64,000 nucleotides of DNA from Acidobacteriota bacterium (GTDB lineage: Archaea > Nanobdellota > Nanobdellia > Woesearchaeales > DATGWN01): the NCBI GenBank assembly GCA_035299465.1, contig DATGWN010000047.1, forward strand, positions 716 to 64,715, written 5' to 3'. The position numbers and the translations under genes are program-made. This document shows, one piece after another, positions 8,310-38,277 of this stretch. Below the pieces are notes generated by a model. It did no database searches and was not told the origin of the DNA. It worked only from the letters and a program-made list of their open reading frames with translations. How positions within the stretch are numbered: the stretch's first letter is position 1; each line of letters starts with the position of its first letter.

Positions 8310-8358
8310 ACAGTGTGATACTATTATCTTTCATTTATATAACTGTAGAATGTGAACA

Positions 8359-11450: not shown

Positions 11451-11466
11451 AGTAATACCTTTTCAG

Positions 11467-12603: not shown

Positions 12604-12683
12604 CAGCCATCGTTACACTCGTCGACAATCGTCGAACAAATTGCGCGTTCGTGCGAAAGATCGCACGTACAAAAAAATAAAAT

Positions 12684-13940: not shown

Positions 13941-14054
13941 TGTTGTTACCCCTAAGTAGTATAATATTGAAACGTATATGCACTTCGTTTATATAGTTTT
14001 GCTCCGGAAGTCTCCGTTTTTTTAGTATTTTTCTCGTCGCAACAAAGTCAGTAT

Positions 14055-20487: not shown

Positions 20488-20582
20488 ACAAATCATTACT
20501 TCTATAATTCTTTATGTCCATACATCCTTGGTCCTGTCTTATTTTGCATACTTTTTTATAGAGCACCATCGAGAAACACTGC

Positions 20583-20927
20583 ATGCCAATTGAATCATTT
20601 GCAAAAGCGTTCGTGACACCCGATACGTATGAATGCGCATTTAGGCCAACATCGTCTGAAAGCAAATTGTCTGACTCTGGGTTGGAGAATATAATCCGTA
20701 AAAAAGTAGAAACTGTACTTGAATGCACATTAGAAGACGCTAAGGCCGAAGAAAATCCGTATGGCACGGTGTGGAAACACAAGGCGTTTCGCAAGATGAA
20801 GATAGGCACCGTTTGGATCATTAAACCGCACGGAAAAACTCTATTCACGATAAAGATATTCCGAGATTTTGACACGGCGTTTGCCACGTCCGATATGATC
20901 GTATTCAAATTCTTCAATAATTTATAG
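20583..20927 (+). CDS. hypothetical protein
   Basis: 114-aa ORF in an otherwise empty interval. Confidence 0.35.
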   Translation: MPIESFAKAFVTPDTYECAFRPTSSESKLSDSGLENIIRKKVETVLECTLEDAKAEENPYGTVWKHKAFRKMKIGTVWIIKPHGKTLFTIKIFRDFDTAFATSDMIVFKFFNNL

Positions 20928-20939
20928 TAAAAATTGTGT

Positions 20940-22013
20940 TCAAATAAAGAAGAACGCAATTGCCAAAATCAAATAGACTGACAATAGCTGTACACCTTCA
21001 AGCCAGTTGCATTTTCCGTCCGACGACAGATAATTGACAATCATCACTGTTGCAAAGACTGCTAAAATTTCAAAGAGCGGAAAGACGATCAAAAATCCCC
21101 AATTGAATATTTCGCTTAAGAAAATGAGGATTGGAACGACAAATAATGCTATCTGAATTGCGCTCGACAGTCCGATTTCCAAAGAGATGTCCAATTTGTT
21201 TCGCAATGCGAACGAAATCGCCGCGAACTTTTCTGCGATGTTTGTGATGATAGCAATAATAACGACACCAATGAATGTCTGAGATAATCCGAGCGCTTGT
21301 GCCCCTGGTTCAATTGATTTGACGAGTAGTTCTGATTGAAGAGCTGCAAACAGAGTCGCTACGGCGATTATAAGAACGGCAACTTTCAGAGGGTATTCAG
21401 GTTTCTCTCGTGCAGCTTTCATTTCGTCGCTGACGTCGAAAAGATGCTTGTGTGTTTTAAGCGAGAAGAACAATGATGCAAGATATGTGATAGCCAAGAC
21501 CATGGCGACAGCGTCTGAGAGTAACGTGATGTTTGCGGTATTCGCAGGATATAAGTTAGCGTAAGCTGTTGGGATTGCGAGACCAATGACGGCGATGATA
21601 AGCATCGTACTTGAGATTCCGATTGACGTTTTGTTGAAATTCTGTTCTGTGAAACGCAGTCCGCCGGCAAAGATCGACAAACCAAGAAGAAGGAGCAAGT
21701 TACCAATTATACTTCCAATGATTGATGCTTCAACTATTCGCGTGAGACCTTCACGAAGTGCAAATATCGCAATAATCAACTCAATGAGATTACCACAGGT
21801 TGCATTGACTAATCCACCAATGGTCGGATTTGACTGTAATGCAACGTCTTTAGATGCGTGGCCAATGTAATGCGCGATAGGAATGAGAGAAAGCGTGAGC
21901 ATGAAGAACAGGAGTGCCGGACTTGCATCTATGTATATGAGTAGCCATGTCAGAGGTATAAATAGCAAAAACCAATGCATCGTCGAATTAAGCCAACTCT
22001 TGAACGTAGCCAT
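20940..22013 (-). CDS. Ca2+/H+ (CaCA/CAX-family) cation antiporter
   Basis: Two alpha-repeats, 'GNLIELIIAIFAL' and 'ITNIAEKFAAISFAL'. Multi-TM. Confidence 0.85.
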   Translation of the reverse strand: MATFKSWLNSTMHWFLLFIPLTWLLIYIDASPALLFFMLTLSLIPIAHYIGHASKDVALQSNPTIGGLVNATCGNLIELIIAIFALREGLTRIVEASIIGSIIGNLLLLLGLSIFAGGLRFTEQNFNKTSIGISSTMLIIAVIGLAIPTAYANLYPANTANITLLSDAVAMVLAITYLASLFFSLKTHKHLFDVSDEMKAAREKPEYPLKVAVLIIAVATLFAALQSELLVKSIEPGAQALGLSQTFIGVVIIAIITNIAEKFAAISFALRNKLDISLEIGLSSAIQIALFVVPILIFLSEIFNWGFLIVFPLFEILAVFATVMIVNYLSSDGKCNWLEGVQLLSVYLILAIAFFFI

Positions 22014-22108
22014 ACATATGTGGGCAAGTGGCCGCTTTATAAAGGTTATTCGAGGTGTGGACGGACGTATTCATAAACTATTTAAACAAGCAATTGTACC
22101 CGCCACTT

Positions 22109-23218
22109 ATGATTACTAACTCCCCAGTGGCTACACTTGAACAATTAGTCCACCTTGACGAGCAATCCGCCAATTCATATCCACATGCTGAATCTGCTTC
22201 TGAGCTTGGCGATGTAATCCAGTTTCCTACTCCTGAGCCGAAAAAACAATATACGCTCGCCGAACTTGAGCAGATGGTAGAATCCGCTGAGCGAGACTAT
22301 TATGCTCTCTTTGACACACCAGCATACGAAGCAAATCACCAACAATTGCGCGAGCAGTTGGTCAATGTACGAAAACAACGCGACGCTCTCAAGAGAAAAG
22401 AAAGCAGAAGCACAAATGCCGTTCGCAATTACGCTACAACGCAATTATCATCTGATGTTTACACGCAATTGAAAGCTAGCTCGCCAGATATCTATTCACG
22501 CGTCCAAAAGAGCATGTCATTCTTGATTGAGGACCTCACAGGTTTCACACTAGAATCACAAAAGGCAAAATCGCTTAAATGGAAAGATCGCGTCGACAAC
22601 ATTGAAGCGCTCGCCATCCACTTGCAATCATATCTTGCGAACCAAGTCACATCAGAATCACTTTCCAAAGCACAATACAATACTATCTGGGGCGATGTCA
22701 AATCAATGATCAAGGCACGTCTTGAAGACAAGGAACTTCGCCGACAAATCAAACGAACGAAATCAGCAGACGCGACTCTCAAAAGCTTTGACACTTTGCT
22801 TGCGAAGATCGAAAGTCCATATAATTACACTCGCAAGGGAGACTTGGGCGAATTCTACGTCGGACCAGAAGGCGCAGGTTTCAAATTGAAATACGCACAG
22901 CCAATCCACATTCCATTCGGGCAGCAAGCAGGAAAACTCTACACGTGCGTTGCATCAAATGTTCCTCAAGTCATCAAACAACCTTCAAAATTCCAACAAA
23001 AATTCCCAAAGTTGCATAAGCTGGCTACTAATGAAGTGGTCATGAAAGCTGCACTCTATATCGGTGGCGCGCTTGCGCTTTTCGGTGGCAATGAGCTACG
23101 AAAAGCATTGCCTGAACTTGTCCACCCGACATACAATATAATCGCAACTGATGATTACCAATCAAAGATGTTAGCGCGCCCGCAATTATCGGCCCACTAT
23201 TCTTTTAACAGTCGGTAG
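22109..23218 (+). CDS. hypothetical protein
   Basis: ORF track starts at GTG 22055. A TATA-like 'CTTTATAAAG' at 22035-22044 makes the first ATG (22109, 'MITNSP') more likely. No motif. Confidence 0.55.
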   Translation: MITNSPVATLEQLVHLDEQSANSYPHAESASELGDVIQFPTPEPKKQYTLAELEQMVESAERDYYALFDTPAYEANHQQLREQLVNVRKQRDALKRKESRSTNAVRNYATTQLSSDVYTQLKASSPDIYSRVQKSMSFLIEDLTGFTLESQKAKSLKWKDRVDNIEALAIHLQSYLANQVTSESLSKAQYNTIWGDVKSMIKARLEDKELRRQIKRTKSADATLKSFDTLLAKIESPYNYTRKGDLGEFYVGPEGAGFKLKYAQPIHIPFGQQAGKLYTCVASNVPQVIKQPSKFQQKFPKLHKLATNEVVMKAALYIGGALALFGGNELRKALPELVHPTYNIIATDDYQSKMLARPQLSAHYSFNSR

Positions 23219-23257: not shown

Positions 23258-23989
23258 ATGGAAAAGCTGCACATTGAAGTCAGAACTATCGATAACATAC
23301 GTACTATGTATATCGAGGGAAAGGCTCAAAGCGCAATGGATGTAACCAATCCAACGCTTGCGGTTTTTGATTATACAAAGTATTTCTATGTACCTTTGTG
23401 TTTGATTGCTGTGAAACGCGCGCTCTTCATAGGTGGAGGCGGATTCAGCGGTCCAAAAATCTATGCGCATCATGGTATCGCCGTAGACGCTGTGGAAGTT
23501 AACCAAGAAGTGGTCGACATCGCAAAACGCCAATTCGCTCTTGACACTCAGACATTCAATGTGTTCGTTGAGGACGGAAGAGCTTTTCTGACGCAGTGCA
23601 GTGTTTCATATGATGCAATAATATTGGATGCATTCATCGCAGAAAAAGTACCATTGCAGTTCACGACGTTTGAATTCTTCACATTGGTGCGAAAGCATCT
23701 TTCTGAAAATGGCTTACTCGTGTTCAACGTGATTTCTGCACCAGAATTATGGTTCTTCCAATCCTTAGTACGCACTCTAAGCAGTGTATTTGCAAGTGTA
23801 CTCGCTTTTGATCTGAGTCCGGCTGCGACACAAACTCGAAACATTATCATAATCGCAAGTCCCTCTAAGCTTAACCCGACGCAAGTGCGAAAAACTTGTG
23901 CACAGTCAACGTTCGACTTAGCAAGAGAGATGGAACTATTCATAGAAAACGTACAGACTCGCCGCGGCGAGATTCTGCGTGATTCTTAA
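23258..23989 (+). CDS. spermidine synthase-like / class I SAM-dependent (aminopropyl)transferase
   Basis: 'LFIGGGGFSGPK...VEVNQEVVDIAKRQF...IILDAF' resembles the spermine/spermidine synthase fold. Confidence 0.6.
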   Translation: MEKLHIEVRTIDNIRTMYIEGKAQSAMDVTNPTLAVFDYTKYFYVPLCLIAVKRALFIGGGGFSGPKIYAHHGIAVDAVEVNQEVVDIAKRQFALDTQTFNVFVEDGRAFLTQCSVSYDAIILDAFIAEKVPLQFTTFEFFTLVRKHLSENGLLVFNVISAPELWFFQSLVRTLSSVFASVLAFDLSPAATQTRNIIIIASPSKLNPTQVRKTCAQSTFDLAREMELFIENVQTRRGEILRDS

Positions 23990-24423
23990 TTGACTTTATA
24001 GACGACAACGCCCACTTTAGTGTGATTTAGAAGCGAGTCTGGGTTGGTATAATTAAGTTGGATTCCTGACCGGAAGACTGCGTTTGGCAGCGTGCATGTC
24101 GCAGTGTAATTTCCAAGGTCACCTGGCGCAAGTGTGGCAGGGCCTAGTGCATTTGCGCATTTGTCAATCGTGACTTGTACATTAGTAAGATCTATCGGCA
24201 ATCCGTTTTGAATGGAAAGAATAACACCAGTCTGGTTGGCACGTGCATCGACACAGATGATGCCGGAATAAAACTCACATTTTTCATTGACGAACGAGTC
24301 CAGATCAAACACACCAGAATACACGAGTACGCCTAACGTGAGCAAGATGATTGAAAATGCCCAACCATACGTCATCAAAAATTCTACGGCCGCCTGGCCC
24401 TTTCGATTATTCTTTCGCATCAT
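23986..24423 (-). CDS. archaeal type IV pilin-like protein (class III signal peptide)
   Basis: 'RKGQAAVEFLMTYGWAFSIILLTLGVLV': KG|Q cleavage site plus hydrophobic stretch. Confidence 0.75.
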   Translation of the reverse strand: MMRKNNRKGQAAVEFLMTYGWAFSIILLTLGVLVYSGVFDLDSFVNEKCEFYSGIICVDARANQTGVILSIQNGLPIDLTNVQVTIDKCANALGPATLAPGDLGNYTATCTLPNAVFRSGIQLNYTNPDSLLNHTKVGVVVYKVN

Positions 24424-24424
24424 G

Positions 24425-25996
24425 TCATAGTACTCCTGAGAAGAGCAGGTTTAGTACCCATCTCAGAACAATAAAGAGAGTCATCGATATCGCCCAGAAA
24501 ATAGGCATATCACGCACAGAACCAAACGCTTTTCCAGTTCTGATTGCGGAAATGATAATAGTCGACATTGTCGTCGTCAAGAACAACATCACTAAGCAGA
24601 AAATAAAGAAGTCGGATTGGCTGACTGCGTCAGTGGACAATGACAGCGAAATTCCCGCCGCGTTGCCACCGCTTCCAGCACTTTGCGCGGCATTCATCTT
24701 CGCGCCGACTTCTTGGACAATCGTGAGTAATTGTGTTGCAACGGCAAACAGACCTGGCGCAGCTACGACTACTGCGAATACAATGAAGATAACGTAGGAT
24801 GTGACGTTTGCAGACATACTTTGCTTACGCAAGTCGATATCTTCCAGGTTTAGTGCAATGTTTTCTAATAAGTCGCCGATTTCACTACCTGCATCCATGC
24901 CTTCAACAATGAGACCAACCGAGCGGCGAATAATCTTCGAATCGTACTTTCTGCCAAAGTCTTGCAATGCAGAGGAAAGATCTTGACCGACCATCGCTTT
25001 TTTTGCGATGATCTCGATCTCCTTAGATAGTATGCCAAATTGCGGACGTGCACCACGCCATAATGCTTGGTCAATAGTCATCCCAGCTCTAATATTTGCC
25101 GCAACAACGTGCAAGAATTCAGGGAAGTGCTTTTCGACGGCATCTTTTCTCTGCGCAATGCGTAAGTCAAGGAATGCGAATGTCAATAAGGATAACACGA
25201 ATGTGCCGACTGGATAGACGAGCGCTGCAAAGAACATAAGTACACTGATATAATAGAAGATGCCACCAAGGCCTTCATATTTCGTATAAATGAAATAAAG
25301 ATAGATCAGTGAACAGATGACAATCGAAAATTTGTTTATCTTTGCAAACATTTCTCGATATGAAAGCGAAAAACCTGCAGTCTCTATGTATGCGTTTAGT
25401 TTGCGCTTGAATTCTGCATCAGCGCTTTTCTTATGAACGGCAGGTTTGTGGTCTTTGGACGTTACGATGTTCTTAAAATTAGTGAGAAACTCGACAATCG
25501 TATTCTGCTTTTTTGCTTCTTTCGGTGGCGACGGCACTTGCGGCTTTGGTTGCTCTTTTCTTTCGAACACTTTTGCTATTGTGTTTGATAGCGATGTAGA
25601 AATATTCTGAGTTGTCTGAGAAATTCTTTGAGATATCTTTTGCGATAATGAGATGTGTGGCGATATTTGGGAAACTGGCTGCGACTGTTCGTTTTGCACG
25701 CTTGCTTGCACTTTTTGTTCTTTCGCGTCAGCTTTTTGCTTTTCCTTTTCTACAATGAGTCTTTTTGCAGACTCAAGTTTGTCTTCGATGTCTTGTGATT
25801 TTGTTTCTTTTACTGGGGCAGACTTTTCAAGTATAGCTTTTTTTGCAGATTCAATCTTTGCAAATGACTGATCCAATTCCTTTTTTTTCTCTGTCTGCGA
25901 TTTGAGAATCTTTTGCTTTGCTGCGTCGATCTTAGCAGCCATAGACTGGTTCACTTCCTGTTGCAATGCCGTTTTCGCAGTCTGTTTTTTTGCCAT
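24425..25996 (-). CDS. T2SSF-domain pilus platform protein (TadC/FlaJ half) with ~200-aa K/Q/S-rich N-terminal extension
   Basis: C-terminal T2SSF domain ('ALWRGARPQFGILSKEIEIIAKKA...') with TM helices. N-terminus low-complexity and coiled-coil-like. Confidence 0.75.
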   Translation of the reverse strand: MAKKQTAKTALQQEVNQSMAAKIDAAKQKILKSQTEKKKELDQSFAKIESAKKAILEKSAPVKETKSQDIEDKLESAKRLIVEKEKQKADAKEQKVQASVQNEQSQPVSQISPHISLSQKISQRISQTTQNISTSLSNTIAKVFERKEQPKPQVPSPPKEAKKQNTIVEFLTNFKNIVTSKDHKPAVHKKSADAEFKRKLNAYIETAGFSLSYREMFAKINKFSIVICSLIYLYFIYTKYEGLGGIFYYISVLMFFAALVYPVGTFVLSLLTFAFLDLRIAQRKDAVEKHFPEFLHVVAANIRAGMTIDQALWRGARPQFGILSKEIEIIAKKAMVGQDLSSALQDFGRKYDSKIIRRSVGLIVEGMDAGSEIGDLLENIALNLEDIDLRKQSMSANVTSYVIFIVFAVVVAAPGLFAVATQLLTIVQEVGAKMNAAQSAGSGGNAAGISLSLSTDAVSQSDFFIFCLVMLFLTTTMSTIIISAIRTGKAFGSVRDMPIFWAISMTLFIVLRWVLNLLFSGVL

Positions 25997-26811
25997 TACA
26001 TGTCAACCGCCGGTCGTGCACCTTTGATGATGGAGAAGAACATGTATTGAAACGACGTGACCACAAGAGCGATACCCAACAGCGCGGAAAGAGATAGTTT
26101 CAAGTCGGCAAATGAGATGAGTACAACAACCATGACCATGCCTAGCGATGGGAAAATGACTGCAATCATCAAATAGAACATCGCAATTGGGTTTAGCTTC
26201 TTACCATATCGCTCGACTTCGATCAATTGCTTTTTGTTGATCTGATCAAGTACTGTCGTCAGTGAGATTGAAATATCCGCGCCAGTCTGGATAGAATTTA
26301 CAATTTGCCACATGACTTTCTGAAAATTCTCGGATGGATTGAGAACGATTGCTTTTGTGATTGCTTCTTCTACGCTGGTACCGACGTCGACATCGTCCAC
26401 TATTTTCTTGAAATACTTTCCAATGCCGTCGTAGTCACGAGCGATGTTCTTGAGCGCATCATAAATCGGAACGCCCGATTTAATCTCAACAATGAGGAAT
26501 TTTCCGACAAAGAGAATGTCCTTGTCGATGTCCTTTCTCTTTCGCATGACGACGACGTCAGGCATCTTGAGCATATTAAGAAATGACAGGCAAAAGAAAA
26601 GCGGTAAGATAATGATCAATGGCCAGAATGGTTTTTTGAAGACGGACAGAATCATCGCACAAGAGAGCGTTATCGCTAGCGCCATAGCCACTGCTTGACT
26701 GAGGATTTTTCTAATATAGATTGCAGGTTCATACTGCATTTCTGCCTGCTGCAACGTGACGTATAGATTCGGAAATTTCCTTGCAACGTAGTGGAAAAAC
26801 GGGTGTACCAT
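25996..26811 (-). CDS. T2SSF-domain pilus platform protein (TadB/FlaJ half)
   Basis: T2SSF domain 'GVPIYDALKNIARDYDGIGKYF...' with 3-4 TM helices. Start overlaps the neighbouring gene. Confidence 0.75.
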   Translation of the reverse strand: MVHPFFHYVARKFPNLYVTLQQAEMQYEPAIYIRKILSQAVAMALAITLSCAMILSVFKKPFWPLIIILPLFFCLSFLNMLKMPDVVVMRKRKDIDKDILFVGKFLIVEIKSGVPIYDALKNIARDYDGIGKYFKKIVDDVDVGTSVEEAITKAIVLNPSENFQKVMWQIVNSIQTGADISISLTTVLDQINKKQLIEVERYGKKLNPIAMFYLMIAVIFPSLGMVMVVVLISFADLKLSLSALLGIALVVTSFQYMFFSIIKGARPAVDM

Positions 26812-26814
26812 AGT

Positions 26815-28449
26815 TTAGCCTATTTTCTTGAGCAGTTCGCTTGGATTGTCGTAGTATTCTGCCATGACATGGCTGACGCCATCGATTGTATTGATGTTAT
26901 TCTTGACAAGATACGCAAGTACGCGCTCTTTTTCTTTGAGTTGCGCTTTGATCTGTGCGGCAGTCATGCCTGAGAACGTCTGTAATGTTTTTAGAAGTAC
27001 AATTGGCTCGGCCACTTTTTTGAGCTTGTCGACTGAAGGATCGTATCTGAAGAGTACGTGCGCTTCGCCGTCTTCGAGGATTTCCGCGATTTCAAATGTT
27101 CGTCGAAGTCCAGTTCGTCTGTTACGGTATTGGATGACGGCCAAGGAAAGCGCAGGGATCATTGTCTTTGGAATGTTGATTGGCGGATTCGTCAGACGTG
27201 TGACTGTTTCTGCCGCAGTGTTTGCGTGAATAGTCGCGTAGACTGAGTGACCTGTGTGAATGGCTTCGAAAAGAACTTCTGCTTCGGCAGGTCTTCTGAT
27301 TTCACCGACGAGGATTCTATCCGGACGCATACGTAGCGAGTTTTGCAAGAGCATGAGCATCGTTACGCCGCCACGACCTTCTGCGTTAGGCAATCGAGTG
27401 AGCATCGGAATCCAGTGCAAGAATTTTGGCAACTTGATTTCTCTGGTATCTTCGATTGAGATGATGCGCTGACTTGGCGGGAAGAAATTTGACATGATGT
27501 TTAGCATACTTGTCTTACCTGACGCAGTACCACCAGCGATAAGCATCGATAATTCGTATTGGATTGCGTGCCAAATGAGTGCTGCTGCCTCGAAACTGAG
27601 CGTGTTATGTTTGAGAAAATCAGCAATTGTCCAAGGCTGTGCCGAGAACTTACGGATAGTGATCGTATTACCTTCGTTTGAAATCGGCATGAGTGTTGCG
27701 TTGACACGGTCACCGACGTTGATGGAGACGTCTAGCAATGGTTCGAGGATACTGATCTGTCGACCAACTTTACGTCCGATGGTGGTCGCAAAATAGCGGA
27801 TCTGCTCTTCAGTTTCCAATTTGATGTTGGTTTTCAGCAAGCCGTGTCGTCGGTGATAGACCCAAATCGGCATGTGCGAACCGTTGATTGCGATTTCTTC
27901 TAAGCCTTGGTCACTCATGAGGACTTCGACTTCTCCTAAGCCAATACTTCGCAAGAGAACGTAGGATACGAAGAATTTTATGTGCTCAGCTTCTGCTGTC
28001 GGAAAGTATTTTTTGACGAGGACTTCGATCGTGTCTTTGAAGACGCCATGTACGTCTTCTTGTTTTTTTGTCATATCCTTGAGCTCGATATTTCCCAAGT
28101 TGACTGTTTTTACTAATTGCTGACGGATATTTTCCAAGATGAGAAGCGTGTGTTCACCAATGCTTGGGACTGAAACGTCATAAAGTGGGACATATTCGCC
28201 TTTTTGTCTGAAGATCTTGATTTGCAGCGGGATGTCACGACAGAGTACTTCGTATGAATCAATCATATCGATACTTTTCTGTCCTTTTGCGTCGCCTAGT
28301 GATGATGAGAAGTCGACGGTCTCCTGCGAAGTCTTTTCCTTCTTATTGAGATTCGTCTTTATCGCACGAGCCTGTTCCTTTTCAGAAACTGACTGGATTG
28401 TTTGAATGGCTTTGGATGGCTGATCTTTACTTTCTCTTTTTTGCCCCAT
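26815..28449 (-). CDS. type IV pilus/archaellum assembly ATPase (FlaI/TadA/VirB11 secretion ATPase family)
   Basis: Walker A 'GGTASGKTS', 'ISIEDTRE' Asp box, 'GEIRRPAEAEVLFEAIHTGHSVYATIHAN' His box. Confidence 0.85.
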   Translation of the reverse strand: MGQKRESKDQPSKAIQTIQSVSEKEQARAIKTNLNKKEKTSQETVDFSSSLGDAKGQKSIDMIDSYEVLCRDIPLQIKIFRQKGEYVPLYDVSVPSIGEHTLLILENIRQQLVKTVNLGNIELKDMTKKQEDVHGVFKDTIEVLVKKYFPTAEAEHIKFFVSYVLLRSIGLGEVEVLMSDQGLEEIAINGSHMPIWVYHRRHGLLKTNIKLETEEQIRYFATTIGRKVGRQISILEPLLDVSINVGDRVNATLMPISNEGNTITIRKFSAQPWTIADFLKHNTLSFEAAALIWHAIQYELSMLIAGGTASGKTSMLNIMSNFFPPSQRIISIEDTREIKLPKFLHWIPMLTRLPNAEGRGGVTMLMLLQNSLRMRPDRILVGEIRRPAEAEVLFEAIHTGHSVYATIHANTAAETVTRLTNPPINIPKTMIPALSLAVIQYRNRRTGLRRTFEIAEILEDGEAHVLFRYDPSVDKLKKVAEPIVLLKTLQTFSGMTAAQIKAQLKEKERVLAYLVKNNINTIDGVSHVMAEYYDNPSELLKKIG

Positions 28450-29743
28450 TATTCCCCTTTTTCTTTGTCTGCTTTTTTACTGTCTTTTTCTTTGACGTCG
28501 TTGGCTTCTCTACTGCCTTTGATGCTGTGCGTCGTGTATTTTCTGTCGACCAATCAAGCATGGACGATAGTTCTTCGACTTTCTTTTTGAAGAACGTTCG
28601 CTTTGCCGTTATGTCGTCAATTTGTGAATGTAATTTGTTGAGCTCCTTGCCGTACGTCGCTGCATCGACATTTGAACCCAAAACTTTTGCTTGTTTTTTG
28701 AGATGTTCTATTTCTTGGCGAAGTTCGACTTCTTCGTGACTGATGATATTGAGGAGGTTCATGACTTCGGCTTTATGTGCAAACAAATCTTGGAAGTGAC
28801 GTGGGATGTCGCGAATCTCGCTTTCCTTTCTATTAAGTTCTTTTTGATCGCGATCCATCTTATCGTAGATGCTTTTTTGGATGAGACTGATTTGCTTTTC
28901 TTGTATTTCGTTTTGACGGATGATATCCTGTAATGCGCGATGCTCTGATTCGAGATCGTTTTTGAGCATGTCGTGTTTTTTCTTGATGTCATACACATGT
29001 TCTTCTGTGAGTGCGAGTTTCTTTGCGCGGTCTTCGACATCAGTCTTGATGCTTGTGCTCAGCGACTTGACTTCGGCTAGACGCTGCTGCAAGAGCATTT
29101 CTTGTTCTTTGACTTTGTCTAGGAATCGTTGGCTTTTCTCGAACAATTTTTGGTCGTTCTCAAGCTCTTTTTTGGCTGATTCATAGGATGTATTGTAATT
29201 GACTTTGAGGTTTTTTATGTGGTCTTCGACTTCTTTGAGTTTAATCATTGAAGATTTCTTGGATTCGAGAATTTGACGGTCGAGGGCTTCCTTTCTTGCT
29301 TCGGCAGCTTGCAGACTTTCGAGTTCCTGGTTAACATTAGACATTTTCTTGTCAACGGAGCCTTCTAAGTCTTTCATGATATTCACGACGAGATTTATTT
29401 TCTTGTCAAGCTCATTGAAGTAACTCTCTGCGGATTCAAGCTTTGTATTAAAGAGATCTTTTTGCTGGTTAAATTTAGAAATCTGTTCTTTGACTTGGCG
29501 TTCGCCCATGTCTTGTTTTACGAGCAGCGTCGAACCAAATTTATACTGAATTTCAACGACACCTTCGCCTTCAAGAATATGAGCCCACTCTTCGATTGTT
29601 TCTACGGGCAAGGCCAACTTTTTTGCTGCGTCCTTTAGGGATATTTTGCCGTATTCATTTATAAGAGAAACGAGTTTATCTACAGTAGTGTTAATAGTAT
29701 TGTTATTTCCCATAGTCCCCAGTCTTGTTTCCACCAAGTCCAT
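28427..29743 (-). CDS. winged-helix + long coiled-coil protein with polybasic C-terminus (pilus-operon accessory)
   Basis: N-terminal wHTH-like 'ISLKDAAKKLALPVETIEEWAHILEGEGVV'. About 300 aa heptad-rich. 'KKKTVKKQTKKKGNNGAKKRK' tail. Confidence 0.65.
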   Translation of the reverse strand: MDLVETRLGTMGNNNTINTTVDKLVSLINEYGKISLKDAAKKLALPVETIEEWAHILEGEGVVEIQYKFGSTLLVKQDMGERQVKEQISKFNQQKDLFNTKLESAESYFNELDKKINLVVNIMKDLEGSVDKKMSNVNQELESLQAAEARKEALDRQILESKKSSMIKLKEVEDHIKNLKVNYNTSYESAKKELENDQKLFEKSQRFLDKVKEQEMLLQQRLAEVKSLSTSIKTDVEDRAKKLALTEEHVYDIKKKHDMLKNDLESEHRALQDIIRQNEIQEKQISLIQKSIYDKMDRDQKELNRKESEIRDIPRHFQDLFAHKAEVMNLLNIISHEEVELRQEIEHLKKQAKVLGSNVDAATYGKELNKLHSQIDDITAKRTFFKKKVEELSSMLDWSTENTRRTASKAVEKPTTSKKKTVKKQTKKKGNNGAKKRK

Positions 29744-29870
29744 TTATATAGTTTACGTATGATTCCGCCCAGAAATGTATGTCAAAACGAGGTGTATTTT
29801 AGAGTAGTTACACTTGCAGAAGAATTCGCGCTTTTGTCTTTCTCTATTTGTTGGATTTAGTGTCAGCTGA

Positions 29871-30872
29871 TCAACCAACGAAGCCCGTCAACTGGTATAA
29901 CGCAATATGCCGCACAGAACCAGAACCGTTGGTGCGATTGTCTAATCTGAATGTCGGCGTCATAATGGTGAAGCCATACGACGTCGGATTTTGAGATGAG
30001 AAATAGATATAGTCTACGCTCGATTTTGTCGCGTCAATGGGCATAAGGAATGCCAATGCAGTCTTATCCACCAGGCTTTCAATACCTGTGCCGTCGTTGG
30101 ATGCGGAAAAGTTACCTTGCAAGCGCATCAAATAATTTGGCGCGTCGTCAAACTGCACATACAATCCATCTTGTATATGCGCATTGAGGTTGGCAGGGTT
30201 ATTGCCGGACACGAAATTGCCAAGATATGGCGATTGATTGATACTGGTGACATATTGGTTTGCTGTTCCGATGATGTAAATCGGATCGGAGAAACCTTCA
30301 ATCGATACTTTACTTATTCGCTGCACTGATCGGTTCCACTGAGATTTCGTTGTTGCGTCGACAAACAATAAGTTGACGTCAATCTCGAAATCCACGTTCC
30401 ACGGGTCAGTCTGTGAGATAGTGACGTCTTGCACTTCGTAGCTGAAATCTACACCAAGTGTTTGCGCCTTTTGGTCGATGCGTTGCAGCCAGTCTGTGAA
30501 AGTGTTATTCACCAGTATTGATGATGATGTGCCGTTGAGCGTTCCGTTGAGAAACAGTTCTTTTGCGTTTGCATTGACAGATTCAAGATAAACACCCTTA
30601 TCTTCGACGGTCTGAATCATCGCGACCAACGTTCGAAAACCGACCGTATATGCCGCGATCGACGCATCTGTCTCTACGTTATCGACGAATTGATTTATCG
30701 AAGAAAGACGTGTGGAGAGCGACAATGAAACGCGATTATCCGATACTTGCGACAAAGACAGCGCGTATGTCAGCAAAAGACTGAGAATGAAAATAGCCGA
30801 TGCCGTGAAGAAAACACCTTTTTTGGTTATTTTCAGTCCCATGCTCGTACCTCGACGACGATTGGGCCCCAT
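29871..30872 (-). CDS. pilin-like surface protein (class III signal peptide)
   Basis: 'KITKKGVFFTASAIFILSLLLTYALS' N-terminus. Many N-x-S/T sequons. Confidence 0.65.
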   Translation of the reverse strand: MGPNRRRGTSMGLKITKKGVFFTASAIFILSLLLTYALSLSQVSDNRVSLSLSTRLSSINQFVDNVETDASIAAYTVGFRTLVAMIQTVEDKGVYLESVNANAKELFLNGTLNGTSSSILVNNTFTDWLQRIDQKAQTLGVDFSYEVQDVTISQTDPWNVDFEIDVNLLFVDATTKSQWNRSVQRISKVSIEGFSDPIYIIGTANQYVTSINQSPYLGNFVSGNNPANLNAHIQDGLYVQFDDAPNYLMRLQGNFSASNDGTGIESLVDKTALAFLMPIDATKSSVDYIYFSSQNPTSYGFTIMTPTFRLDNRTNGSGSVRHIALYQLTGFVG

Positions 30873-32785
30873 AATGATGGAACATCGGTGATAATATTGC
30901 CTGTCACCAAGAATCCGTTTGCTTGGATGTATCCACCCATGACGGCTTGTAGGCGTGCGAGTGCATCAGCATCCGCTTCGGCTTGAGTGGCGAATACCGC
31001 GCCATAACCGACGTATGACGGGACGAAGAATCTTCGTTCAATCTGTGAGATGTTGAGGATTTGATATGTCGTCTCCTTCACTCGCACGTAATTATTTATG
31101 GCGCTGCTTTTTTGGAAGTAGTCGCTGTCTATGAAAATGCTGGAAGGTACTGCGCGCTGCGATGGTGAACTAAAATGCAATTGACTTGGTGGGTTGTAGA
31201 TGTCAGCCCACACGGATATTTTATCCGAGTCTTTTTCGACGAGGTGGAAGTATGTATCGCCTACTTGCGTGATCGATGCGGGATAATTGAAATATCGGAT
31301 ACTGTCAACTTCGTTAGAACCATTTATTTTCTCAACAGCTGCAATCTCGATCTCACCATACGGGATTATGTTATTGATACTAAGCGTATAGTTCACTTCG
31401 ATATATGATGATGTACTGTAATTGTTTTTTATGTCACTAAAAATAGTAGGATTGCCGTTACCCCAGACGTGGTCGCCGTATGAATTTAGGTAGACCGCCA
31501 TTATGTTCGTGCCATTCTTCAAATATGGCGAGAGGTTGGTGTTTGAGAATTTGTACGTCGCTGTGGCAGACGGCGAACCGTTGACTAAAAGCGGTGTGTC
31601 GCTGTTGAGGAAAAACATGACGTCAGTCGCAGATGGATCTTTCATCGTCCCGTCCCAGCCGACATAGGATGCACACGGATCATTGAGTCTGGCACCGTTA
31701 TAGAGTACACGACATCGTGCGCCTGAGATATAATCGCGAACGCTGCTTGTTGCAATTTGTGCGTAGACACTCAAATTTTGTGCGTCTTTTGGAATGACGA
31801 ATGGCATCGTTGCCCAGACGCCGGCACCGTCGTTACCAATTTCACGAGAGCGGATATTATCAAAGTAGTATCGTCGTGAAAACTGCGTTTGCGTAAATGA
31901 GATCGGTACTTCGCTGGTGTATTTTATGAACAAACCTGTGCCTGGCTGCAAGTGCGCATTATATCCATTATGCTCAAACTCAATGTATAGTTTATTTGTA
32001 CCATTTACGAAACAGCTAGTCGAAACGTTTTTTTCACCGACGTTTCCTGTCACGTCCAGGAAATACCATGTGAAATCATCGCGACGGAATTGGCATAGGC
32101 CGTCATTGAAATTCATAATCATGTCGTTTTGCTGTGTTCCTGAGTTGAGGGATACAATGAATTTTGCTTCAAGTAGCGTTAGATTCGTGAGATTGAAATA
32201 TTTTGTAACGTCGTAGAATCCTTCGTCCCATCCTGCGCCCGATGGTGAGAGTGTCACTACATATGTACTGTTGCTGCGGACCTTGGTCGCACGCGCATTT
32301 GCGATGAAACCGCGCGTCGGCTTATTTTTCTCGACGCCAGAAACGATTCTCCATGCGACGGATTGGCTTGCAATCGGAGGATTCGTTCTCGTATAGATTG
32401 ATTCGTTCTCGATCCAAATGCCAAATGACGAATAATCTGGAATCGTCTGATTGAGGAATGCGACGATGAATTCATTGGCGAGCACATCGTCACCTTGCGC
32501 CCAGAACTGGCCCATTTGGGAAATGATGTTTTGACTCAGGTCTGTTATCGAGCCGTTCGCATTCGCGGCGACGACCCACGGATTTCCTTGGTTGTATAAA
32601 TCCGAAACGTGGACGGTTTCTAACACGTGCATTATATCTTTAGAGAGGAAGAATGATTTTGGCTGACCTGCACTTTGTGTTGGCGTGATGACAAGAAGCG
32701 AAATAGCTGCGAGCAGAATTGTCGCACAGATAATTGCATCTATGATAAAGAAGACTGCTTTTTTGTTTGATGGCTTTAGTCCCAT
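30833..32785 (-). CDS. giant (650 aa) pilin-like/adhesin-like surface protein (class III signal peptide)
   Basis: 'KKAVFFIIDAIICATILLAAISLLVI' N-terminus. N/S/T-rich, numerous N-glycosylation sequons. Confidence 0.7.
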   Translation of the reverse strand: MGLKPSNKKAVFFIIDAIICATILLAAISLLVITPTQSAGQPKSFFLSKDIMHVLETVHVSDLYNQGNPWVVAANANGSITDLSQNIISQMGQFWAQGDDVLANEFIVAFLNQTIPDYSSFGIWIENESIYTRTNPPIASQSVAWRIVSGVEKNKPTRGFIANARATKVRSNSTYVVTLSPSGAGWDEGFYDVTKYFNLTNLTLLEAKFIVSLNSGTQQNDMIMNFNDGLCQFRRDDFTWYFLDVTGNVGEKNVSTSCFVNGTNKLYIEFEHNGYNAHLQPGTGLFIKYTSEVPISFTQTQFSRRYYFDNIRSREIGNDGAGVWATMPFVIPKDAQNLSVYAQIATSSVRDYISGARCRVLYNGARLNDPCASYVGWDGTMKDPSATDVMFFLNSDTPLLVNGSPSATATYKFSNTNLSPYLKNGTNIMAVYLNSYGDHVWGNGNPTIFSDIKNNYSTSSYIEVNYTLSINNIIPYGEIEIAAVEKINGSNEVDSIRYFNYPASITQVGDTYFHLVEKDSDKISVWADIYNPPSQLHFSSPSQRAVPSSIFIDSDYFQKSSAINNYVRVKETTYQILNISQIERRFFVPSYVGYGAVFATQAEADADALARLQAVMGGYIQANGFLVTGNIITDVPSLWGPIVVEVRAWD

Positions 32786-33243
32786 AATGTCACCTGCATT
32801 TTTATTACGTAACCATCGAGCACTGCAAATCGTGTGACTGACGCAGATTGTTTTGCGTTCACTGGAAATGTACCAATAAATGAATTACCTGAGAAATTCA
32901 ATTGGTTTGACTGATTATAGAAAGTGATGTGATACTTAGACTCTGCTCCGATCAAGATTCGCTGCGCTGTCGGTGCCATTGCAAAAAATGCATCAATTTT
33001 GTCTCGGTCTAGTTCACCGTCCGTAATGAGTCCTGCCTGTATGACATTCGATGCATTCCAGTCTGACGGAATTCCTTCACCAAGCAAGATTTCGCTGGCG
33101 TAGAACGTATCACTAGAAAGGTCCTCTAATGATGTCGGAGGGCTCAAGGATGTGACATAATTATATGTAATTATGTAGATTAGAATGACAAAGAAAAGTG
33201 CGATCAAAAAATCCACTTGCCAGACTTGTCCACGGTTGTTCAT
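32776..33243 (-). CDS. archaeal pilin (class III signal peptide)
   Basis: 'MNNRGQVWQVDFLIALFFVILIYI'. Confidence 0.7.
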   Translation of the reverse strand: MNNRGQVWQVDFLIALFFVILIYIITYNYVTSLSPPTSLEDLSSDTFYASEILLGEGIPSDWNASNVIQAGLITDGELDRDKIDAFFAMAPTAQRILIGAESKYHITFYNQSNQLNFSGNSFIGTFPVNAKQSASVTRFAVLDGYVIKMQVTLWD

Positions 33244-33620
33244 TGAATTGTCAAACCTCCGTTGAGCATGGCAAGCGTGAAATTAAAGGATGTCGTGTTT
33301 CCCGTCACAGATGGTAATGCAAGTACTACTTGATTCTCGCCCTGTGTAATATACATATTACTCGCAAGGATTTCGAACGTATACGGATTACCATTAATAG
33401 TCGGATCAAGTTCTATTTGACGAGAAAATCCTTCTTTCATAGTGGATGCGACCATGAAATCGTTCTGCAGCGAGATAGCAAATGATTCAATTGCAGATTC
33501 TTCTTGTTCTTGAATCGACTGCGTTTGCTCCGATAAGACAAAAATGATTATACCTGAGAACAAGATGAGTGCGACACCAAAATACACCATGAATTCTGTC
33601 AAGACTTGTGCTTTTCTCAT
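33240..33620 (-). CDS. archaeal pilin (class III signal peptide)
   Basis: 'MRKAQVLTEFMVYFGVALILFSGIIIFVL'. Confidence 0.7.
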   Translation of the reverse strand: MRKAQVLTEFMVYFGVALILFSGIIIFVLSEQTQSIQEQEESAIESFAISLQNDFMVASTMKEGFSRQIELDPTINGNPYTFEILASNMYITQGENQVVLALPSVTGNTTSFNFTLAMLNGGLTIQ

Positions 33621-34078
33621 GATTCTGCTATACTGACACCGGAACCAGTTGCAGTCACCAGCACGCTTCTTGTGCCTTCACGTGCAGATAGAGATCCGCT
33701 GAGTGGCACTGATGTAAATACGGTGATGTCTTCTTGACCGTACTGCGTCTGCATGCGCGCAGTTATCGTCTCGTTGGAAAAGAAAATTGACTGGACTGAG
33801 TCTGGAAAATAGATATTGACTGTGCTAAACGACGGCGGACCTATGTTGTAGACTGATTGCGCGTGGTCTGACACAGTTGTGAGTGCAAGATATACCTGGC
33901 GAGTCTGTAACGTGTCGCGGTACTCCGCATATGAATTATACGCAAGAACAGAGACTGGAATAATAATGGCAAGAACAAAACCCACTGTCAGTAGGTATTC
34001 AATGCTAACCTGACCCCTCTTTTGCATCATGTGTATTTCCACAGGCTTGTTTAAAAATGCTGCGATGCTAGTACGCAT
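33617..34078 (-). CDS. archaeal pilin (class III signal peptide)
   Basis: 'MMQKRGQVSIEYLLTVGFVLAIIIPVSVL' (start probably at the internal MMQKRG). Confidence 0.7.
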   Translation of the reverse strand: MRTSIAAFLNKPVEIHMMQKRGQVSIEYLLTVGFVLAIIIPVSVLAYNSYAEYRDTLQTRQVYLALTTVSDHAQSVYNIGPPSFSTVNIYFPDSVQSIFFSNETITARMQTQYGQEDITVFTSVPLSGSLSAREGTRSVLVTATGSGVSIAES

Positions 34079-36624: not shown

Positions 36625-38277
36625 CTAGGCATGTGCCAGCGCGGTCTTTTCAAGCAATGGTTTTTGGGCCAACAATTGTCTATATAGATCTAAACGACTC
36701 TTTATTCTTTGGATTGGTTCGCTTTTTGCCAATTCCGTACCGTCGACATCTTCTTCTATCTGCTTTTCGACTTCAATCGTCGCACGAATCCACGTGTCAC
36801 GTTCGGCTATCGTGAGCGCTGCTTTTTCGGCAAGCATTTCTCTGATGCGTAGTTCGCATCTTTCGAATGAACCGAGTGCTGAATGCATATGCTGCTCAAT
36901 TTGTTTATTGTATTTTCTTGCGAGTCTTGTAAGGCAAGAAGTCATGAAATCGCCGAGTCTGTGCGCGTACGAACCGTTGCTATGCAGGAGTCTTGCTTGC
37001 ATTTGCGTTTCAAAGTCGTGTTTCTCGCGGATTTCGTCGCTGATAGCCCACAGTAGTTCCCGTGTTGCGTCTTCGTCAAAACTGTCCGTTGTTATGTAAC
37101 CTGCTGTATGCATTTGATTTGTGCCAATTGTTGCAGCGACATAACCTCGCTCGTATATGCGGCGTTTGATTGCTGCGTCTAGCGGTTCAGTTGTGAAAGT
37201 GATCTTTGCGCCGTTTGCGGTTGTATTTGCCAATTCTTCTTTGAGACTGTTTTCACAGATGATGTCGCACGTCTTGTCCAGTTGGACGTTGCCTAGAACG
37301 GATGTGTCTTCAGCTCGGATCGCGTACACTTGAGAGATGACGTTCTCCATGGGAACCAGAATCGCGATTTTCTTTTTCGACCAATTGCCCCACATATGAG
37401 ATGCGACTGGACCGTTGACTGCAAAATGTACCGTCTCTCGTCCTAAAAAGTCGGTACCTTCACTAGTCTGTGATGTTGTTAGTATGATGCCGTTTTTCGG
37501 GAAATAATCTGTTTTATGGACAAGGATGAATTGTTTTGGGTTCGTTTCGCTGCGCAAGCGTCGGACTTCCTGCAAATACTTGAGCATTTTCTCCTGCTTG
37601 TTTGTAAGCGTGACATTGATCGCCTTATAGTCGGCTTCGATCGCCTGCAAATCATGCGGATGGAAGACTTCGATGATTTTGATATTGGCGTCGCAGAATT
37701 TCTTAACTAGCAGTGCGCGTCTATGTTGCTCAGGCATTATTTCATTGAGTGCCTTCTCTTCTTTGTCAAGGATTTCTTTGTACTGCGCAATCCATGAAGA
37801 AACTTGTGGGCCTATGCGAGTCACAGGGACGAAAAGCGCCAATAACTTTTTTTCGTCTTCGAGCGCGCGCATGAGCTGGAAATATTTGACAAACGCCGCG
37901 TTAAACTCATCTTTGTACGTGTTGATAAGTTCTGTAGTCAGATTCTGCTGCGATTTTGTGAGTTTTGCAAAGCTTGCGAATGAGAATAAGAATGCATGTT
38001 TGTCTTGCACACTAAATACTGTTTCTTGTTTCTGCAAAAATTCATGCAGTTTTTTTACGACTTTATTGAGTTCAAGGGCGTTAAGCTCGTTTTTGCTCTT
38101 TTTTGTAAAGGAGAACAATGACTTTGGTTCTGGTTTGAATGCTTCTGTCACAAGTTCAGTCATCGAAGCGAGATAGGTACGTCTGGTTTGGACTGAATGG
38201 AACTTCCAGTTAAACGCGATTCCCAATTCTACAAAGGCCTTTTCAACAGCTTTGTAATCTGCCGCTACATACTGCAT
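36625..38277 (-). CDS. hypothetical protein (550 aa)
   Basis: Long clean ORF, helical/charged, no motif recognised. Confidence 0.65.
   Translation of the reverse strand: MQYVAADYKAVEKAFVELGIAFNWKFHSVQTRRTYLASMTELVTEAFKPEPKSLFSFTKKSKNELNALELNKVVKKLHEFLQKQETVFSVQDKHAFLFSFASFAKLTKSQQNLTTELINTYKDEFNAAFVKYFQLMRALEDEKKLLALFVPVTRIGPQVSSWIAQYKEILDKEEKALNEIMPEQHRRALLVKKFCDANIKIIEVFHPHDLQAIEADYKAINVTLTNKQEKMLKYLQEVRRLRSETNPKQFILVHKTDYFPKNGIILTTSQTSEGTDFLGRETVHFAVNGPVASHMWGNWSKKKIAILVPMENVISQVYAIRAEDTSVLGNVQLDKTCDIICENSLKEELANTTANGAKITFTTEPLDAAIKRRIYERGYVAATIGTNQMHTAGYITTDSFDEDATRELLWAISDEIREKHDFETQMQARLLHSNGSYAHRLGDFMTSCLTRLARKYNKQIEQHMHSALGSFERCELRIREMLAEKAALTIAERDTWIRATIEVEKQIEEDVDGTELAKSEPIQRIKSRLDLYRQLLAQKPLLEKTALAHA

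Follow-up and report, generated by a model that had tools for sequence, protein, structure and literature searches.

The ten consecutive minus-strand genes described here very probably encode, judging from the genes alone, the assembly machine and subunits of a DPANN (Woesearchaeota/Nanoarchaeota-type) type IV pilus of a lineage-conserved type, a reading to which we assign a probability of roughly 0.8. The cluster is real but unremarkable as type IV pilus loci go. It belongs to a DPANN/Woesearchaeota-type archaeon, a tiny symbiont, and lies within the 64-kb stretch of DNA that was analysed (referred to as the window). The first-pass annotation had listed these genes, and all ten are present where it placed them; its reading of the cluster as an archaeal locus for a type IV pilus, including an ATPase and two separate single-T2SSF platform genes, was borne out by Pfam matches to T2SSE and T2SSF. 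The features are as follows (a slash marks the predicted cleavage position of a signal).

34050..34058, minus strand: TATA-like ATTTTTAAA, by direct reading of the sequence
33617..34030, minus strand (ORF 33617-34078): gene 1, small pilin-like protein, about 137 aa from M17
33240..33620, minus strand: gene 2, small pilin-like protein of the DUF7266 family, 126 aa, signal MRKA/QVLTEF
32776..33243, minus strand: gene 3, small pilin-like protein, 155 aa, signal MNNRG/QVWQVDF
30833..32785, minus strand: gene 4, predicted large pilin-anchored surface protein, 650 aa, signal KKA/VFFIIDA
29871..30842, minus strand (ORF 29871-30872): gene 5, pilin-like protein, about 323 aa from M11
29743..29870, minus strand: intergenic gap of 127 nt with TATA-like AACTATATAAA at 29743-29753, also read directly
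28427..29713, minus strand (ORF 28427-29743): gene 6, predicted cytoplasmic wHTH/coiled-coil protein, wHTH at about aa 17-76, coiled coil of ~320 aa, polybasic tail
26815..28449, minus strand: gene 7, T2SSE/FlaI-type hexameric secretion ATPase, 544 aa, Pfam T2SSE 4.5e-35
25996..26811, minus strand: gene 8, platform, N-half equivalent (TadC-like), 271 aa, one T2SSF domain, Pfam 7.1e-17
24425..25996, minus strand: gene 9, platform, C-half equivalent (TadB-like), 523 aa, Pfam T2SSF 5.1e-13 (aa 294-418)
23986..24423, minus strand: gene 10, candidate major pilin, 145 aa, signal RKG/QAAVEFLMTYGWA

The genes form two tightly coupled modules, one of five pilin-like proteins, three of them small (genes 1-5), the other of the wHTH/coiled-coil protein, the T2SSE ATPase, two T2SSF half-platforms and the 145-aa pilin (genes 6-10). 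Gene 2 overlaps genes 1 and 3 by 4 nt, and gene 6 overlaps gene 7 by 23 nt. The ten-gene order is kept in four related loci (L001, L003, L004, L010) and partially in two (L002, L009), while in L051, L055, L076 and L085 the block of genes 1-5 is on the opposite strand to genes 6-10. The 127-nt gap between the modules is a probable internal promoter. The second TATA-like element, in a short gap after a P-type ATPase gene (stop at 34068) and ~24 nt upstream of where gene 1 probably starts, may likewise act as a promoter. Based on orthologue N-termini and these TATA-like boxes, the starts of genes 1, 5 and 6 are probably to be refined to M17 (34030), M11 (30842) and M11 (29713), respectively.

The contig is archaeal, despite its GenBank label of Acidobacteriota. 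That label (the source name of both P0001 and P0121 is Acidobacteriota bacterium), the pair of single-domain platform genes that comes after the ATPase, as it does in bacterial Tad/Flp loci (TadA/CpaF, TadB/CpaG, TadC/CpaH), and a Glu+5 with an aromatic +6 in some of the pilins, as in the Flp motif, could be taken to indicate a bacterial Tad locus. We consider this hardly credible. The window encodes aEF-2 and an aEF-1alpha with an eEF1A-type C-domain, as well as a 104-nt tRNA detected by Rfam only, and all close relatives of the ATPase are from Woesearchaeota or Nanoarchaeota. No Pfam match to secretin, CpaB, TadZ/CpaE, TadD or TadE/F/G was found among the locus genes; the N-domain of the ATPase is long and of archaeal type, and both afGspE and FlaI give this protein higher scores than CpaF does. 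Moreover, the platform halves come in the order opposite to tadB-tadC, the TadC-like N-half being first. The arrangement is not the TadB/TadC one to which the first-pass annotation likened it, but the reverse of tadA-tadB-tadC. According to Denise 2019 (PMC6668835), Tad itself probably descends from an archaeal system of the Epd type.

The catalytic motifs of the gene 7 ATPase are intact (Walker A GGTASGKTS, Asp box IEDTRE, Walker B DRILVGEIR, His box HTGHSVYATIHAN), and its long N-domain is of the FlaI/GspE2 type. The best PDB matches were afGspE (2oap, 245 bits), FlaI (187) and CpaF (169). In NCBIfam it remained under every equivalog cut-off, the best match being a full-length one to the FlaI model (264.7 bits). 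This match, the source names of the relatives (“flagellar protein FlaI” in JGI and KEGG-style annotation), the homology of ATPase and platform to those of the archaellum (ArlI/ArlJ/ArlB), and the counting of fla genes as motility genes in Woesearchaeota studies (PMC11606122) would all be in line with an archaellum (motility) operon. Such an assignment is nevertheless very unlikely, as the FlaI score is far under the 550-bit cut-off, the platform is split, unlike FlaJ, and neither the ten genes nor the window contained a match to the Arch_flagellin, FlaF/G, FlaH or FlaCDE/X (ArlF/G/H/CDE/X) families. In addition, a neighbour-joining tree (crude distances, with a reference set lacking Epd, Ups and Aap) placed FlaI, afGspE and the haloarchaeal ATPases in one clan, away from the DPANN ATPases and CpaF, in 200/200 bootstraps.

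Dozens of relatives share the two-gene platform, which has been documented in archaea before. Compared with two haloarchaeal two-domain PilC proteins, the gene 8 family HMM scored higher with the N-half (46/41 bits) than with the C-half (25/23 bits), and that of gene 9 with the C-half (85/69 versus 14/32 bits); gene 9 also matched positions 265-483 of 484 in NCBIfam UpsF and 267-550 of 555 in ArlJ. In all four bacterial loci compared, the gene 8 HMM favoured the second Tad gene. The T2SSF genes are adjacent and colinear with an unsplit platform gene, N half first, as might be expected of a single FlaJ/PilC-type gene broken at 25996 by a sequencing or assembly frameshift. An artefact of this kind is, however, exceedingly improbable and is refuted by the conservation of the split. 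Stop and start codons overlap cleanly at the junction (TAATG), and the ~195 aa that open the second ORF have no counterpart in an unsplit platform: residues 1-195 of gene 9 (25412-25996) are a lineage-specific K/Q/S-rich extension, His-rich in L009 and missing from 51 other loci. All fully covered relatives, which come from independent assemblies, show the same split. Separate ORFs were found in 46/50 metagenome loci with enough downstream sequence (junctions mostly of -4 to +12 nt), and a fused version in 0. The two genes are therefore genuine, as the first-pass annotation had it. Its view of a split platform as unusual for archaea does not hold, because such platforms are published for Epd-like/System 1 loci (Denise 2019, PMC6668835), for clade 4B and numerous clade 2 systems (Makarova 2016, PMC4858521), and, in the Sivabalasarma & Albers 2026 preprint, for System 1, with DPANN named, and for subsystem 4A in DPANN.

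Six of the proteins have a class III-type N-terminus, i.e. a short basic stretch, G or A, and a hydrophobic helix, in agreement with the six class III signal proteins initially reported, and the signal motifs are conserved among orthologues. Four pilins, including genes 1-3, carry an EppA-type signal (Gln+1, Glu+5), a form absent from all other ORFs of the 64-kb window; in M. maripaludis, Gln+1/Glu+5 with DUF361 marks EppA-dependent pilins (PMC3875500). The signals of the 650-aa and 333-aa proteins (genes 4 and 5) are of the form KK[GA]/[VI]FF. The gene 1 signal is MMQKRG/QVSIEY (Gln+1, Glu+5, Tyr+6), and its orthologue in L001 begins MQKRGQVSIEYLL. In the HMM searches that matched T2SSE (gene 7) and T2SSF (genes 8 and 9), gene 1 hit Pfam Class_IIIsignal PF04021 at about 7e-4 to 8e-4, under the gathering score; 4/17 scanned members matched this family, orthologues reaching 2.4e-5 at best. 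DUF7266 was likewise matched by 4/17 scanned members, in a set including the four gene 2 orthologues (best 8.8e-8), and also occurs in the haloarchaeal PilB3/PilC locus L008 (8.3e-12). Gene 3 keeps its position across related loci and its N-terminus in L001, L003 and L010, with a weak DUF7287 match in its relatives. Gene 5 (signal MGLKITKKG/VFFTASA) matched no Pfam family, contains 8 sequons, and its N-terminus is kept in L001, L002, L003 and L010. Genes 2-5 and 10 contain 1.6-2.8 sequons per 100 aa, as compared with 0.43 in background proteins. The pilin-like genes are faster evolving, with identities of 27-45% versus 59-72% for the ATPase between the same genomes.

The gene 10 product, with 4 Cys and 4 sequons, has no relative in Pfam or PDB. 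Its first ~40 residues are near-invariant among loci whose ATPases are only 44% identical, and 22/41 loci carry it downstream of the platform genes, in 1-3 copies arranged in tandem. Based on this N-terminal conservation and tandem duplication, and on these features only, it is the likely major pilin; its length (145 aa) counts against the assignment, not being Flp/EpdE-sized.

Neither a Peptidase_A24 (prepilin peptidase) nor a KaiC/FlaH gene was found in the locus or the 64-kb window by a multi-TM screen, Pfam search of the window ORFs or phmmer with one A24 and two KaiC queries taken from related loci. This extends to the whole window the absence already noted for the locus, and makes the term “complete” an overstatement, the peptidase being obligatory. 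With none within 64 kb, prepilin processing is assumed.

In its features, the locus comes nearest to the Epd-like/System 1 class (Makarova clade 1; the Epd pilus of Methanococcus maripaludis), sharing two single-T2SSF platform genes beside the ATPase, multiple pilin-like genes, G-ending signals with Gln+1 and Glu+5 (DUF361/PF04021) and, in part of the related loci, a KaiC/FlaH-like accessory gene. A split platform is the rule in this class; the Sivabalasarma & Albers 2026 preprint describes two platform genes for System 1 and reports the class in DPANN. In contrast to Epd, the candidate major pilin is 145 aa, globular and Cys-containing rather than ~60-aa Flp-sized, there is no linked EppA, and a wHTH/coiled-coil gene is added. 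The assignment is mixed because gene 2, a DUF7266 member, ties the set of pilins to the haloarchaeal PilB3/PilC3-type adhesion pilus loci (System 2/clade 2). Further likenesses are weak PilB3_C matches in some DPANN ATPase relatives and the haloarchaeal ATPases as top tblastn matches in the plasmid collection. On the other hand, two such haloarchaeal loci encode an undivided two-domain PilC (~680-700 aa) together with PilB3_N and major pilins of the Pilin_N (PF07790) family, all lacking here, and a split with 100% bootstrap support separates their ATPases from those of DPANN. In lineage and kind of island, the locus resembles the two-platform DPANN loci of Sivabalasarma & Albers (2026) and the DPANN “dark-matter island” (Makarova, Wolf & Koonin 2019, Fig. 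2A; PMC6393860), which combines a FlaI-type ATPase, TadC and TadB with signal-peptide proteins that show no recognisable likeness to known pilins. The available text of these two sources does not go through the loci gene by gene and does not mention the wHTH module, the half order or the gene 10 pilin family.

In the AF2 model of gene 6, a winged helix at the N-terminus precedes a coiled coil of ~320 aa, and Foldseek matched the former to AspA/ArsR/MarR, upholding the initial description of this protein. The wHTH family comprises 796 representative clusters, N-terminal in every case. The domain lies upstream of the ATPase in 47/58 loci; its in-frame fusion to the N-terminus of the ATPase was detected with a domain-specific HMM in six (L066, L074, L079, L087, L088, L090). 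Its presence in nearly every related locus and these fusions suggest that gene 6 is an ATPase-bound subunit, a predicted partner or scaffold. The wHTH could bind DNA instead.

DPANN cells rely on external nucleotides, which would suit a DNA-uptake pilus with the wHTH handling nucleic acid; a short protein-secretion or substrate-capture (bindosome-like) pseudopilus may also be envisaged. The nearest wHTH fold matches are DNA-binding proteins, some gene 6 proteins have a polybasic tail, and the ATPase matched the bindosome ATPase BasE at full length, though below threshold (145.6 bits). We regard both as unlikely alternatives to an adhesive pilus: the locus has neither a substrate-binding protein with a class III signal nor a ComEC/DNA-channel gene, the conserved duplicated pilin and the large variable surface protein fit an exposed filament, and the wHTH-ATPase fusion points to a protein-level module.

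For the adhesive pilus, we propose that a prepilin peptidase encoded elsewhere would cut after G or A, and that the half-platforms of genes 8 and 9 would pair in the membrane, rebuilding one PilC/FlaJ-like unit under the hexameric ATPase. Genes 1-5 may form a priming or tip complex displaying the beta-sandwich 650-aa protein, a candidate tip adhesin, while gene 10 would polymerise into an N-glycosylated shaft. The most likely role of the filament would be attachment to surfaces or host cells. The gene 6 wHTH would sit on the ATPase N-terminus, with its coiled coil as scaffold or regulator. No description of such a wHTH/ATPase-partner subunit, including for Epd, was found in the literature. The possibly new part of the locus is only this partner protein of the motor ATPase.

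The ten minus-strand ORFs that the first-pass annotation had read as a complete archaeal Tad-like pilus locus were all recovered by an ORF check (genes 1–10, counted downwards from the high-coordinate end):

23986-34078, minus strand: ten-gene pilus locus

In line with the domains that it had assigned, profile searches found a T2SSE ATPase domain in one gene (gene 7, 544 aa; Pfam PF00437, 4.5e-35), a single T2SSF domain in each of two (PF00482; gene 8, 271 aa, 7.1e-17, and gene 9, 523 aa, 5.1e-13), and in gene 1 a Class_IIIsignal (PF04021) match that is below threshold and reaches 2.4e-5 in an orthologue. The catalytic motifs of the gene 7 product (Walker A/B, Asp box, His box) are complete on reading the sequence and invariant in the alignment; its PDB matches are afGspE, FlaI and CpaF, and it aligns over its full length to the NCBIfam FlaI model, with 264.7 bits against a cut-off of 550. 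Both platform proteins are multi-TM and gave no meaningful match in a sequence search of the PDB, while gene 9 aligns to the C-terminal halves of the NCBIfam UpsF and ArlJ models. Six locus proteins start with a short basic leader, a G or A and then a hydrophobic helix, and the motif is kept in orthologues. A T2SSE ATPase, a T2SSF platform, a signal motif (here in six proteins) and a dedicated A24-family prepilin peptidase are the features by which the type IV filament superfamily is recognized; the locus has the first three and is a genuine, well-conserved DPANN type IV pilus locus.

Proteins identical to the ATPase and to the 650-aa gene 4 product are labelled "Acidobacteriota bacterium" in GenBank (MAG TPA). 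Every close relative of the ATPase comes from Woesearchaeota or Nanoarchaeota MAGs, the pilus genes have DPANN relatives only, and the window carries the following features:

50851-53046: aEF-2
55773-57065: EF-1alpha, eEF1A-type
45908-46011: tRNA of 104 nt, probably intron-containing (found by Rfam, not by ARAGORN)

The archaeal elongation factors, the tRNA and the DPANN-only relatives together place the contig in a DPANN archaeon, mis-binned, and the Acidobacteriota label in the public record probably reflects a mistake in binning.

The first-pass annotation had reported two separate T2SSF genes and had named, as the finding that would overturn this, a single gene broken by a sequencing frameshift at 25996. 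The junction (GAC ATG TAA TGG) is a clean overlap of one base between the gene 8 stop codon and the gene 9 start codon. The ten-gene order is repeated on contigs from independent assemblies (L001, L003/L004 and L010, partly L002 and L009), with a T2SSF gene of 271-274 aa followed by one of 337-374 aa. HMMs of all ten families were also run over 80 metagenome loci with ATPases 42-63% identical to gene 7. Downstream of the ATPase, 50 of these loci extend for at least 2.3 kb; gene 8 and gene 9 are separate ORFs in 46 of the 50 and fused in none, and the junctions mostly range from -4 to +12 nt. The clean overlap and the conservation of the split rule out a frameshift origin, and the two genes are real.

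The orientation of the two halves was assessed with HMMs built from 61 gene 8 and 51 gene 9 sequences (with only four per family the comparison with TadB/TadC had not been discriminating) and scored on two haloarchaeal two-domain PilC proteins (L008, L094). Gene 8 favours the N-terminal half of PilC (46/41 bits vs 25/23 on the C-half) and gene 9 the C-terminal half (85/69 bits vs 14/32 on the N-half), the same direction as in an earlier, smaller HMM test against two-domain PilC. In all four bacterial Tad loci compared, gene 8 fits the second gene (TadC/CpaH position) better, and in three of the four gene 9 fits the first (TadB/CpaG position) better; a TadB HMM gives 48.5 bits on gene 9 and 19.7 on gene 8. 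This assignment agrees with the published equation of TadC with the N-terminal and TadB with the C-terminal half (Denise 2019, PMC6668835). With gene 8 as N-half and gene 9 as C-half, the order is colinear with the unsplit gene and the reverse of that in bacterial Tad, which runs tadA - tadB (C-half-like) - tadC (N-half-like). The likeness to the Tad TadB/TadC arrangement drawn in the first-pass annotation is therefore not upheld, the HMM scores reversing the order of the halves.

Gene 9 is itself a length outlier, its 51 family members from related loci measuring 315-369 aa. Residues 1-195 (25412-25996) form a low-complexity, hypervariable, K/Q/S-rich cytoplasmic N-terminal extension, in which a SAK-x-I-[LV]-EK-like motif apparently recurs in three related copies. 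In L009, the closest relative (ATPase 76% identical), an equally long, His-rich extension lies at 3258-3830; such an extension is absent in 51 other loci.

Two parts expected of a pilus system are missing from the locus. The absence of a prepilin peptidase and of FlaH/KaiC, already remarked for the ten genes, extends to the whole window: the only multi-TM proteins in it are a CaCA antiporter, a P-type ATPase, a DUF1295 protein and the two platform proteins; no A24 peptidase was found in the 64 kb by this multi-TM screen, by Pfam of the remaining ORFs or by phmmer with the A24 protein of locus L072, nor any KaiC/FlaH by Pfam of the remaining ORFs or phmmer with the KaiC proteins of L003 and L085. 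Since the window holds no peptidase, the locus would depend on one that is presumably encoded elsewhere in the genome. In only one of 80 related loci (L072) does an A24 peptidase lie within 10 kb, and among ten multi-TM neighbours screened as peptidase candidates in related loci the L072 protein was the single A24 member. In that locus the Peptidase_A24 gene occupies 20044-21280, with a 61-aa gene-1-like ORF ahead of it. KaiC/FlaH-like genes occur near the locus in L003/L004 and in about 12 of the 80 metagenome loci (PF06745, 4.6e-62 for L085); in the five loci below they sit directly downstream of platform or pilin genes.

KaiC/FlaH-like ATPase genes in related loci
L085, 13495-14331
L076, 14159-14998
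L074, 8257-8946
L088, 9279-9977
L003, 13453-14262

The signals of genes 1, 2 and 10 read [GA]|Q...E, and that of gene 3 G|Q with Asp at +6. A motif scan found no Gln+1/Glu+5 signal in other window ORFs of at least 60 aa. In M. maripaludis this pair of residues marks the DUF361-family substrates of EppA (PMC3875500). The first ~40 residues of gene 10 (GQAA[MVI]EFLMTYGWA...) are almost invariant, even between loci whose ATPases are only 44% identical; in 22 of 41 loci the platform genes are followed by one to three copies of it in tandem. The gene encodes 145 aa (139-151 aa in relatives) and has no relative in Pfam or PDB searches. On the strength of the near-invariant N-terminus and the tandem copies, we propose gene 10 as a candidate for the shaft (major) pilin. 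By analogy with bacterial minor-pilin complexes, genes 1-5 would form a priming/tip complex, in which the 650-aa gene 4 product is proposed as a candidate variable adhesin.

Membership in the archaellum and in bacterial Tad can be excluded, as the defining genes of both are missing. Archaellins (PF01917), ArlF/G and ArlH have no match, and the platform is split where the archaellum has a single ArlJ. Likewise, Pfam and NCBIfam searches of the ten genes gave no match to the RcpA/CpaC secretin, CpaB, TadZ/CpaE or TadE/F/G, whereas the bacterial reference loci (L007, L091-L093) contain them. The haloarchaeal PilB3/PilC3 loci (System 2) are characterized by a single two-domain PilC, Pilin_N (PF07790), PilB3_N/C and DUF7288/7266/7289 accessory genes; DUF7266, found here in gene 2, is the sole shared feature, while the platform is split, Pilin_N and PilB3_N are absent, and PilB3_C matches are weak and seen only in relatives. 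As judged from sequence comparison, several features favour an Epd-like (System 1) class: the two contiguous single-T2SSF genes, the DUF361-type signal (G at -1, Gln+1, Glu+5) on the pilins, the FlaH/KaiC-like genes near some relatives (in System 1 such a gene lies by the ATPase; Denise 2019), and an NJ tree, built without references from Epd, Ups or Aap, in which one clan made up of FlaI, afGspE and the haloarchaeal ATPases excludes the DPANN clade and CpaF in 200/200 bootstraps (for System 1, ATPase and platform would be expected to cluster with EpdL/EpdJK and Tad). On the other hand, a simple assignment is opposed by the reference set of that same tree, by the DUF7266 domain of gene 2, and by the 145-aa major-pilin candidate, the major pilin of System 1 being Flp-sized (~60-75 aa) and without a globular domain.

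Directly upstream of the ATPase gene lies gene 6, whose predicted structure has a canonical winged helix (aa 20-76), then helices at 81-222, 228-358 and 361-396, ending in a basic, disordered tail; by Foldseek the winged helix matches AspA, ArsR and MarR folds. The domain alone occurs in 796 representative clusters, always N-terminal, with a modal protein length of ~385 aa. Across the 80 loci, where it forms its own gene, the product has 74-746 aa and the gene is directly upstream of the ATPase gene, often overlapping it; in six loci (L066, L074, L079, L087, L088, L090) it is joined in-frame to the N-terminus of the ATPase, with two copies in L079. Such a Rosetta-stone pattern speaks for a physical partnership between winged helix and ATPase, the coiled coil probably being a variable add-on. 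Several of the KaiC/FlaH-bearing loci are those in which the wHTH protein is short or fused. Eight proteins of 830-960 aa, considered as candidate ATPase fusions, were rejected as T2SSE is absent from them by Pfam; a gene 6-type domain is N-terminal in them, and long stretches without a Pfam match come after it. A 657-aa protein of the representative library (P0136) has five tandem gene 6 winged-helix domains. In the searchable literature, nothing specific was found on wHTH/coiled-coil proteins as partners of secretion ATPases in archaea. It is possible, if on balance doubtful, that two propositions hold jointly: that the wHTH protein is an undescribed, near-obligate subunit of a pilus class found throughout DPANN, docked or fused at the ATPase N-terminus, with a scaffold or regulator role like that of FlaH, TadZ or ArlX; and that the N-then-C order is the original fission state, the swapped tadB-tadC order being derived.

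Gene overlaps delimit two blocks, genes 1-5 and genes 6-10, which can be divergent in relatives, as would fit two transcription units. A TATA-like box lies within the 127 nt between them and another ~24 nt before the probable start of gene 1, both being putative promoters. A sigma-70 promoter/terminator scan, of no relevance to archaea, gave chance-level results. Elsewhere in the window, about ten co-oriented minus-strand ORFs, mostly without a Pfam family, span 6177-18575, and a 387-aa ORF and a spermidine-synthase-like gene lie convergent to the pilus locus at its 3' end:

6177-8309, minus strand: 710-aa protein with an alpha/beta-hydrolase/lipase-like C-terminus
9717-11450, minus strand: AAA-type ATPase
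16284-18575, minus strand: AAA-type ATPase
22055-23218: 387-aa ORF without Pfam family
23258-23989: spermidine-synthase-like gene
36625-38277: 550-aa ORF without Pfam family
60889-63477: 862-aa ORF without Pfam family

A small minus-strand ORF (3056-3247) has a bacterial-lipoprotein-like signal, MRTKAIIALLLISVLLLTAC, and a strong homologue of Lgt (PF01790, 4e-68) is encoded on a related DPANN contig (L032, 13927-14667); these sequences hint that these archaea process lipoproteins in the bacterial way.

Split platforms had already been published for archaea, and the contrast that the first-pass annotation drew with the single platform of the archaellum, Aap and Ups, though correct, leaves them out. 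Two tadC-like genes were noted in clade 1, many clade 2 loci and clade 4B (Makarova 2016, PMC4858521), and Epd-like systems with split platforms were described together with the argument that gene fission preceded the transfer giving Tad (Denise 2019, PMC6668835). A further study reports a DPANN island of FlaI, TadC and TadB with unrecognisable signal-peptide proteins (Makarova 2019, PMC6393860), and a recent preprint places System 1, defined by two platform genes, in DPANN, where some 4A loci also have two platform genes (Sivabalasarma & Albers 2026). Overall, the split platform is real and already in the literature, which makes the headline observation ordinary; what is added is modest and threefold: the order in which the platform halves are encoded, a proposed major pilin and a wHTH module associated with the ATPase.

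DPANN archaea are believed to be attached to host cells in life, a contact for which pili are prime candidates. Annotations routinely give their pilus genes flagellar names in error, and a gene-by-gene map is now given for a locus type present on at least 80 metagenome contigs. For the platform gene split in Tad evolution, the colinear order of N-half and C-half offers a small, testable data point, and the proposed major pilin, the adhesin candidate and the wHTH module are targets for cryo-ET, proteomics and heterologous expression.
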